Sequence record: OR845648.1
DNA: 1,855 bases
Direction: 5' to 3' (one strand)
From: Escherichia phage ECO95 1-6-1
The notes under the pieces were generated by a model. The model ran no database searches. It was not told the DNA's origin and saw only the letters and a program-made list of their open reading frames with translations. Positions within the stretch are counted from its first letter, which is position 1. Each line of letters starts with the position of its first letter. Made by a program: the position numbers and the translations under genes. This document shows, piece by piece, positions 300-1,226 of this stretch.

Positions 300-1226
300 A
301 TGCCAAACTGGTGCTCGAATCGTATGTATTTTTCTGGTGAACCAGCACAGATCGCTGAGATTAAACGACTGGCCAGCGGTGCAGTCACACCGCTTTATCG
401 CCGCGCCACAAATGAAGGTATTCAGCTGTTTCTGGCCGGAAGTGCCGGACTTCTGCAGACCACTGAAGATGTGCGGTTTGAACCATGCCCCGGACTGACG
501 GCTGCCGGGCGTGGCGTTGTATCGCCGGAGAATATCGCGTTCACCCGCTGGCTGACACACCTGCAGGACGGTGTACTTCTGGATGAGCAAAACTGCCTGA
601 TGCTGCATGAACTCTGGCTGCAGAGCGGTACTGGCCGGCGTCGCTGGGAAGAATTACCGGATGATGCCAGGGAAAGCATTACCGCTCTTTTCACCGCAAA
701 AAGAGGTGACTGGTGCGACATCTGGAGTAACGAGGATGTATCTGTGTGGTGGAACCGTCTGTGTGACAACGTCCTGCCGGAAAAAACCATGCCGTTTGAC
801 CTGCTGACGGTTCTGTCCACTCGCCTGGATGTTGAAGTGAATGGCTTTAACGGTGGTGTTCTGAACGGTGTTCCTTCTGCATATCACTGGTATACGGAAC
901 AGTATGGCGTGAAGTGGCCTTGTGGGTATGAGGTGAATATCAGCAGTCAGGGAGACAACTTCATTCAGGTTGATTTCGACACGCCGTGGTGTCAGCCGGA
1001 AAGCGACGTTATTGCAGAATTAAGCCGCCGTTTCAGTTGCACACTGGAGCACTGGTATGCCGAGCAGGGCTGCAATTTCTGTGGCTGGCAGCGATATGAG
1101 CGTGGAGAGCTTGTTGATGTCCTGTGGGGGGAACTGGAATGGTCTTCCCCGACAGATGACGATGAGCTGCCGGAAGTCACCGGACCTGCGTGGATTGTCG
1201 ACAAGGTGGCGCATTACGGTGGATGA
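300..1226 (+). CDS. Hypothetical protein, 308 aa, acidic and Trp/Cys-rich, function unknown; candidate anti-defence protein
   Basis: Long ORF in the supplied track (255..1226). I prefer the internal ATG at 300-302 because a strong Shine-Dalgarno GAGAGGAG sits at 285-292, 7 nt upstream; the ATG at 255 has no comparable RBS. TGA stop at 1224-1226. No competing ORF of similar length on either strand. Protein begins MPNWCSNRMYFSGEP and ends in an acidic tail SSPTDDDELPEV. Confidence 0.8.
   Translation: MPNWCSNRMYFSGEPAQIAEIKRLASGAVTPLYRRATNEGIQLFLAGSAGLLQTTEDVRFEPCPGLTAAGRGVVSPENIAFTRWLTHLQDGVLLDEQNCLMLHELWLQSGTGRRRWEELPDDARESITALFTAKRGDWCDIWSNEDVSVWWNRLCDNVLPEKTMPFDLLTVLSTRLDVEVNGFNGGVLNGVPSAYHWYTEQYGVKWPCGYEVNISSQGDNFIQVDFDTPWCQPESDVIAELSRRFSCTLEHWYAEQGCNFCGWQRYERGELVDVLWGELEWSSPTDDDELPEVTGPAWIVDKVAHYGG

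Follow-up and report, generated by a model that had tools for sequence, protein, structure and literature searches.

A DUF1281 protein at the oriT-distal end of plasmid leading regions: a candidate establishment factor preceded by a predicted single-stranded DNA promoter

The DUF1281 gene and its product

We analyzed a stretch of 1,855 nucleotides of the sequence record OR845648.1 (Escherichia phage ECO95 1-6-1; this whole stretch is hereafter termed the window), which carries an intact open reading frame (ORF) for a protein of 308 amino acid residues (aa), flanked by two structured segments and followed by the 5' part of a DNA methyltransferase gene (Table 1). The protein belongs to the DUF1281/Api92-like family, as both Pfam gathering scores were passed: PF06924 (DUF1281) matched residues 30-206 (3e-49; 167.4 bits against a cut-off of 27.3) and PF18406 (DUF1281_C, "ferredoxin-like domain in Api92-like protein") residues 209-282 (8e-16; 58.1 bits against a cut-off of 22.8). 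The window shares 98.9% identity with pO157- and pSFO157-type IncF plasmids, at least 5000 PLSDB records match it, and its positions 12-1855 are 93% identical to the IncI1 plasmid pESBL-EA11 (hereafter pESBL).

We regard ATG300 as the true start codon because a Shine-Dalgarno sequence, AGGAG, precedes it at a spacing of 7 nt and the N-terminus that it yields, MPNWCxN, is invariant or nearly so among the homologues. The same N-terminal conservation contradicts a longer ORF from the GTG at 255, and a start at Met9 (the 300-aa version found in some RefSeq records; L001:15324; window 300-323) removes the invariant MPNWCxN. The dN/dS ratios (nonsynonymous to synonymous; Nei-Gojobori) against three plasmid alleles ranged from 0.20 to 0.34, and the protein is therefore under purifying selection. 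It contains 46 D+E and 23 K+R residues, 16 W (5.2%) and 10 C, with an isoelectric point (pI) of 4.48 and a net charge of -23; recomputation reproduced exactly the hand counts of the initial annotation (308 aa, D+E, K+R, W and C, CNFC and TDDDELPEV). CNFC occupies residues 258-261. The stretch TDDDELPEV, described in that annotation as an acidic tail, is present but internal, and does not form the C-terminal end. Likewise, the tryptophan richness and the CxxC pair emphasized there exist but do not extend to the family: only the enterobacterial plasmid clade has a Trp content of 4-5% (1.2-3.9% in the distant members), and the CxxC pair is conserved in the plasmid clade only. On the other hand, the net charge is negative throughout the family down to ~28% identity (-4 to -33, most members between -13 and -33).

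Residues 3-274 align with PDB 2IJR, the structure of Api92 from the adhesion pathogenicity island of Yersinia pseudotuberculosis, at an E value of 8.5e-50. The predicted model shares its fold with 2IJR, which was the sole significant PDB fold match, and a sequence profile search of PDB returned nothing but 2IJR. Thus, Api92 is the only solved relative, and the protein initially described as uncharacterised is so in function but is not without a family. Api92 shares both DUF1281 and DUF1281_C with the window protein but has fewer Trp, lacks both cysteines of the CxxC pair and lacks the acidic loop with the GPxWI..N..H[YF]GG tail; it is a structural-genomics entry with no function assigned. In the DSSP assignment of the model, an N-terminal strand and helix (residues 4-25) lead into a helical insert that extends to approximately residue 205. 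A beta-alpha-beta-beta-beta unit (213-278) comes next, and an acidic loop (283-292) then precedes a short strand and helix at the C-terminus. The C-terminal sheet is ferredoxin-like and the conserved tail ends in GG.

The family signatures MPNWCxN, NGFNG, DFDTPW and FCG, conserved in two family alignments, are all present in the window protein. Family-wide, M1 and N7 are invariant, while C5, D137, W138, the glycines of NGFNG, F226-D227-T228 and G262 are conserved at 90% or more. At the C-terminus (residues 283-308; window 1146-1223), an acidic run is followed by V-x-G-P-x-[WY]-I-x-x-N-x-x-H-[YF]-G-G at the very end; this signature, which looks like a docking motif at the level of sequence, is kept down to ~28% identity and is absent from the Api92 clade. 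A phmmer search of 1.84 billion representatives yielded 656 matches at E<=1e-3 and 89 at E<=1e-30, many of which are fragments. A locus search with a family alignment recovered 30 related loci. NCBIfam gave no match for the protein, PHROGs gave families of unknown function only, and no function-hinting domain fusion was found among the relatives of the C-terminal domain. The single-member database "fusions" with PsiB, a methyltransferase or TrbC look like frameshift or assembly artefacts. Several further candidates were discarded: a zinc site formed by C5/H251/C258/C261 (these residues are not conserved across the family), a tautomerase-like role of the N-terminal proline (without fold support), a mimic of the tail of single-stranded DNA-binding protein (SSB) formed by DDDELPEV (the stretch is internal, and an internal acidic stretch is unlikely to use the pockets for the SSB tail), and the C-terminal GG as a ubiquitin-like handle (set aside as pure speculation).

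The split ferredoxin-like domain also occurs in stand-alone YubB-domain proteins, which are encoded by phages, giant viruses and metagenomic mobile elements (Foldseek against BFVD, E 2e-6 to 1e-3; PF18406 matches). These proteins differ from the window protein in length (150-260 aa) and in the short or absent helical insert, are 11-16% identical to it, and are all uncharacterised. Two of them, of 155-166 aa, were observed in metagenomic elements (L050:6001-6468 and L052:5923-6423) within long arrays of small co-directional ORFs, both of which contain DUF932 and one of which (L052) also contains an orphan N6_N4 methylase. The layout of these arrays resembles a leading or early region, in otherwise unrelated elements.

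Structured elements flanking the DUF1281 gene

We folded the flanks as single-stranded DNA (ssDNA) of the minus strand and compared them with dinucleotide shuffles. Positions 1-299 gave -67.1 kcal/mol (z -3.6) and positions 1227-1610 a z of -4.9, so that both flanks fold better than shuffled sequence, in agreement with the two hairpin-rich elements noted initially. According to Wen et al. (2025; PMC12672017), pESBL carries three classes of ssDNA promoter, namely class 1 (ssi1-3/Frpo), class 2 (5' of klcA and of ardA) and class 3 (5' of M.EcoGIX), with transcription starts mapped by 5' rapid amplification of cDNA ends (5' RACE); F has conserved versions of classes 2 and 3. Homologues of the latter two classes flank the DUF1281 gene in the window.

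The upstream flank contains a class 2-like core, with a -35-like TTGCAT (the complement of 140-145) and a -10-like TAACGT (the complement of 119-124) separated by a 15-nt spacer. The core common to the elements upstream of DUF1281 and of klcA spans ~100 nt and reads, on the transferred strand (T-strand), GACCGGGTGA ... CTTGCAT - N15 - TAACGT - G..GGCACGGC. In pESBL, the class 2 profile found exactly three sites, all on the T-strand: those of klcA (69.9 bits), of ardA (70.2 bits, albeit outside the training set) and of DUF1281 (66.6 bits; 104 nt upstream of the gene, L049:3263-3368). In the minimum free energy (MFE) folds, one architecture is common to the DUF1281 element and two klcA elements, with the -35-like hexamer paired and the -10-like hexamer located in an internal loop. 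The hexamer-carrying (3') arm of the DUF1281 hairpin acts as the non-template strand in the MFE fold, and transcription would thus run toward ATG300, from a start predicted near window position 262. The DUF1281 element is nearer to its start codon than the klcA element is (104 nt against ~177 nt from core to ATG). Altogether, the third class 2 core in pESBL and F-type plasmids scores like the validated klcA and ardA copies and has the class 2 core and hairpin architecture, yet is not among the six pESBL promoters named in the accessible text of PMC12672017 and is apparently unreported. Its activity is a prediction from sequence and may be weak. Class 2 hairpins have also been described as replication roadblocks (bioRxiv 10.64898/2026.01.09.698686). 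We also observed that window 1-299 is 100% identical to an ST131 plasmid (L016:2702-3000) of which the DUF1281 gene differs by ~5%, which points to mosaic recombination within the module.

The presence of such an element before DUF1281 is not confined to close relatives of the window. A class 2-like core was found 74-141 nt upstream of DUF1281 in 20 loci, at 35-98% protein identity. In seven loci of Klebsiella, Salmonella and Citrobacter, a duplicate of the class 3 element lies 41-45 nt before DUF1281, the same spacing as before the methylase gene; in L003 and L008, this copy is 87-91% identical to the methylase-upstream copy. DUF1281 follows klcA behind a class 2 core in two loci, and the profiles detected neither a class 2 nor a class 3 element upstream of DUF1281 in nine loci. 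The class of the element has thus been swapped across genera while an element of ssDNA-promoter type has been retained before DUF1281, an outcome that selection for expression off the entering strand would produce.

On the downstream side, a GC hairpin (1240-1257) and a T-tract resemble a terminator; the RNA fold of 1222-1275 gave -24 kcal/mol (z -3.3), and GC hairpins directly 3' of the DUF1281 stop codon recur in many homologous loci, other lineages included. The hairpin and T-tract after the stop codon fit a self-contained transcription unit. A consensus scan of the window found no double-stranded DNA promoter of sigma-70 type, albeit the same scan overlooked the terminator-like hairpin, and Rfam gave no meaningful match in the window. 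Further downstream lies the class 3 element, the homologue of the pESBL hairpin 5' of M.EcoGIX that was validated by 5' RACE (PMC12672017). It is 98% identical to that of F and 93% to that of pESBL and is located 45 nt before the methylase start; in pESBL, the class 3 profile found the validated site only. The plus-strand frame at window 1230-1535, which many records list as a 101-aa "hypothetical protein", overlaps the class 3 hairpin and is not open in the homologous elements of Klebsiella, Salmonella and Citrobacter (longest stretches 60-76 aa). Thus, this frame is probably not a gene.

Table 1. Features of the window and duplicate class 3 elements in related loci.
Feature	Position	Strand	Basis or remark
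Distal stem-loop on the T-strand, upstream of the main hairpin	2..104	-	Separate hairpin, minus-strand positions 196-298 of the 1-299 fold
Class 2-like (ssp2-type) core	91..196	-	nhmmer, profile of seven cores: 66.6 bits, E 1e-18; also regular expression (regex)
Large imperfect hairpin with promoter-like core; candidate ssDNA promoter of the DUF1281 gene	105..269	-	1-299 DNA fold
Shine-Dalgarno sequence AGGAG	288..292	+	Direct sequence reading; 7 nt before ATG300
DUF1281 / YfaB (YccB, YubA-YubB, Api92-like) protein, 308 aa	300..1226	+	Pfam, 2IJR alignment
Terminator-like GC hairpin followed by the tract TTTCTTTT	1240..1265	+	14 nt past the stop codon
Class 3 (ssp3-type) ssDNA promoter element of the methyltransferase operon	1328..1565	-	nhmmer class 3 profile, 240 bits
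Orphan N6-adenine DNA methyltransferase, 5' part, runs off the window	1611..1855	+	PF01555; NCBIfam PRK13699, 1e-50
Duplicate class 3 elements	L003:9721-9957, L008:9742-9956, L026:5724-5960, L027 and L028:5719-5956		Upstream of DUF1281

Genomic neighbourhood and distribution

The methyltransferase gene directly downstream had been noted from the outset as lacking a restriction partner, and no partner is in view. Over 81 aa, its product is 85% identical to M.EcoGIX of pESBL, an adenine methyltransferase that is specific for single strands and has been proposed to shield incoming DNA (PMC7736820). In pSFO157, the genes are arranged in the order of sopA, sopB, DUF1281, (hypothetical), DNA methylase, DUF1380 and, further along, the antirestriction gene (KlcA/ArdB), followed by ssb, DUF905, ParB-like, psiB, hok, DUF932 and transglycosylase, all on one strand. 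The transglycosylase gene borders the tra region, where the origin of transfer (oriT) lies (traM is just beyond it in F), and F and pESBL have the same layout as pSFO157. The gene order in the three plasmids places DUF1281 at the far end of the leading region as seen from oriT, with the partition genes on its other side and ssb, psiB, klcA and the methylase gene in the same orientation. For a gene in this orientation, the T-strand is the template (PMC9849209). DUF1281 therefore lies in the leading region, has the T-strand as template, and is preceded by a correctly oriented homologue of a validated ssDNA promoter.

The order DUF1281 - (small ORFs) - N6_N4 methyltransferase - YubE - DUF1380 - ... 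ArdB/KlcA ... ParB_N - PsiB - PsiA is conserved in IncF and IncI1 plasmids of E. coli and, as far as the contigs reach, in Klebsiella, Pantoea and Salmonella (46-98% protein identity). At 46-50% identity (Klebsiella IncFII, Pantoea and Salmonella), DUF1281, the small ORF(s), the N6_N4 methyltransferase, YubE and DUF1380 are kept; ArdB, ParB_N and PsiB follow in the longer Klebsiella and Pantoea contigs, and PsiA follows in Pantoea as well. The downstream module stays while the upstream neighbours change (sopAB, parM-stbB or umuDC-dinI). In the IncI1 intergenic region that the divergent dinI-umuDC shares with DUF1281, outside the window, we observed a LexA-box-like CTGT-N8-ACAG beside dinI-umuDC (L049:3078-3130). 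In another plasmid type, the order is methyltransferase - ArdB - DUF1281, with a gap of 72 bp. We compared with Pfam the 118 ORFs that neighbour DUF1281 in nine loci at 28-37% identity: DndB, PsiA, Antirestrict and N6_Mtase (four times each) and ParM were the most frequent families, with single cases of ArdC (two domains), ArdA, a DUF6094 methyltransferase, a topoisomerase, TraI_2 and DotM. On a Pantoea pathogenicity plasmid, DUF1281 is paired with an ArdC-type protein in a region of integrative and conjugative element (ICE) type (PMC10425158). In a metagenomic element (L014:444-2427), two DUF1281 paralogues lie in tandem, with genes for a DUF6094 methyltransferase and an SNF2-type helicase after them. 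Altogether, DUF1281 is embedded in a cluster of establishment genes for methyltransferase, ArdB, Ssb and PsiB.

The gene was found in 3101 of 5426 complete E. coli genomes (57%), at 80% gene coverage or more in 2956 of the 3101, and 4077 of the 4127 E. coli copies are plasmid-borne. DUF1281 is almost exclusively plasmid- or ICE-borne; the full-length family was essentially absent from 50,697 phage records, in which one jumbo phage carried the C-terminal domain only. In F (NC_002483, 52855-53780; L002:6856-7781), DUF1281 is frameshifted into pieces of 183 and 145 codons. The C-terminal one of the two pieces may be the source of the name YubB.

Samuel et al. (2024; Nature, PMC11541004) catalogued the family in their supplementary table 3 as family 27 (1949 members, "Uncharacterized; DUF1281"), of which the window protein is a member that shows no difference from it. 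The members bear the UniProt names YubB, YccB, YfdA, YfaB and YafB. They are enriched in leading regions (false discovery rate (FDR) p 0) at a median position of 22 genes from oriT and share their strand with the other leading genes; neither DIAMOND nor Foldseek matched the family to the anti-CRISPR (Acr) or anti-restriction sets, and the accessible text and tables report no functional test (PMC11541004). The family and its leading-region enrichment are thus already published, and DUF1281 is a "known unknown", a family that is catalogued and has a solved homologue but no known function. The leading-region context inferred initially is borne out by both the location at the oriT-distal end and the enrichment of family 27, and the survey of homologues, with N6_N4 methyltransferase, ArdB, PsiB, PsiA, ArdA and ArdC among the neighbours, agrees with it. 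Homology to a housekeeping family and a core-chromosomal context, either of which would have spoken against an anti-defence role, were both absent from these results.

Proposed role and alternatives

The initial annotation proposed that the protein counters host defence, and drew an analogy to the DNA mimics ArdA and Ocr. The argument from context holds, as DUF1281 resides among establishment genes, while the analogy to DNA mimics fails on charge and on the absence of any homology or fold match. The profile and structure comparison suggested in that annotation returned no match: hhalign of the DUF1281 family alignment gave a probability of 0.8% against pESBL ArdA (no PF07275 match) and of 0.2% against pESBL KlcA/ArdB (no PF03230 match), no ArdA, Ocr, ArdB or Acr structure was among the fold matches listed, and PADLOC had no match for the protein. 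A mimic in the style of ArdA or Ocr should present an elongated, DNA-like surface that is highly acidic and dense in negative charge, and should have the fold of either protein. None of this was found in DUF1281, and we regard such mimicry as very improbable. The pI of 4.5 of DUF1281, its conserved acidity and its anti-restriction gene neighbourhood would suit such a mimic, but the charge density of -0.075 per residue (-0.081 in the pESBL allele) is about half of that of ArdA of the same plasmid (-0.151). The density is well below those of classical DNA mimics. Furthermore, the negative charge is gathered in residues 221-300 rather than spread along the protein, and most of the conserved acidic positions fall in the C-terminal half. 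From both density and placement, mimicry of DNA by the whole protein is unsupported. ArdB/KlcA (PF03230) and ArdA (PF07275) do resemble DUF1281 in being acidic, in sharing its neighbourhood and orientation, and in being preceded by a class 2 element (validated for klcA and ardA, predicted for DUF1281), but they have no homology to DUF1281 and different folds, and DUF1281 is twice as long, with a role that is predicted only.

Instead, we tentatively favour, with somewhat less than an even chance of being correct, the reading that DUF1281 is an accessory establishment factor, broadly anti-defence, which is made early in the recipient and binds a recipient protein without catalysis. The structured element, ribosome-binding site, coding sequence and terminator-like hairpin would make up one independent unit at the end of the leading region that is distal to oriT, and the incoming single strand would permit early expression in the recipient from the hairpin of ssDNA-promoter type. 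The product would act as a stoichiometric binder or decoy that uses its conserved acidic C-terminal half and tail to engage a recipient protein hindering establishment, such as a defence nuclease or a stress-response factor. We infer that DUF1281 works like an anti-defence or establishment factor, yet outside the known anti-restriction families; an anti-defence role is plausible, albeit unproven. As a speculative target, we consider type IV (methylation-dependent) restriction provoked by the adjacent promiscuous ssDNA methyltransferase. In its fullest form, the proposal is that DUF1281 represents a new establishment or anti-defence family with a fold unlike those of known inhibitors, expressed via an unreported class 2 promoter (IncF/IncI1) or a duplicated class 3 promoter (Klebsiella, Salmonella and Citrobacter), which neutralises a specific recipient barrier, possibly methylation-dependent restriction triggered by the neighbouring methyltransferase. 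We regard this combined version as possible but rather unlikely.

Several observations weigh against the proposed establishment role. Acidity by itself is not distinctive, as several other proteins of the leading region match or exceed DUF1281 in this respect. The accessible text of PMC12672017 names six induced operons in pESBL (the three ssi operons, klcA, ardA and M.EcoGIX) and none at DUF1281 despite the same upstream element, implying that strong zygotic induction is unconfirmed and possibly absent. Full-length DUF1281 is nearly absent from phages, unlike the ArdA-, Ocr- and ArdB-type proteins. F is the standard conjugation model, and its frameshifted copy indicates that the gene is dispensable in laboratory matings; by the same token, work on F cannot reveal the function of DUF1281, and the frameshift also fits a conditional, host-dependent benefit of the gene. 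No experiment or functional study on the DUF1281/Api92 family was found in the searchable literature. Finally, judging from the alignments, the near-invariant polar residues C5, N7, D137, D227 and T228 could form an active or ligand site instead of a binding surface.

The last point leads to the view of DUF1281 as an enzyme or a binder of a small ligand or nucleic acid, the site of which would come from the P2-N3-W4-C5-x-N7-R8 strand together with the DFDT and HxYxE strands of the ferredoxin-like sheet. Such a protein could, for instance, process DNA, RNA or a signalling nucleotide, or introduce a modification into it, as the plasmid enters. The Pfam, NCBIfam, PDB profile and fold searches revealed no homology to an enzyme. 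We consider this view unlikely. A comparably low probability is assigned to a role in the plasmid's own DNA transactions, as a helper of the ssDNA methyltransferase, in complementary-strand synthesis at structured elements, or in partition and maintenance. Zygotic induction is not required for such a role, which accords with DUF1281 being unnamed among the six operons in the accessible text, and the double function of class 2 hairpins as replication roadblocks, the tight linkage to an M.EcoGIX-type methyltransferase in every close lineage, the constant position of DUF1281 at the boundary with sopAB, parM-stbB or umuDC-dinI, and the confinement of the full-length protein to conjugative elements all favour it. 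M.EcoGIX expressed alone, however, methylates DNA (PMC7736820), the maintenance genes vary while the linkage of DUF1281, methyltransferase and ArdB persists, and the distant homologues sit with other methyltransferase families, ArdA and ArdC. The chance that DUF1281 is a decaying passenger gene without current function is close to negligible: the frameshifted copy in F and the many truncated clusters in databases could be read in this way, but the low dN/dS, the predominance of copies with at least 80% coverage in E. coli, the motifs at both termini kept down to 28% identity, and the synteny conserved across genera contradict it.

The DUF1281 gene itself is no surprise to specialists; its ubiquity and the apparently unreported upstream element make it a reasonable target for experiments. 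The upstream element bears on the true number of ssDNA promoters in these plasmids. The crystal structure of a homologue dates from 2006. The gene resides on the main resistance and virulence plasmids of the IncF and IncI types, within the region on which establishment in a new host depends. Identification of the target of DUF1281 would extend the plasmid entry programme by a further component and could uncover a barrier in the host that limits how resistance plasmids spread.

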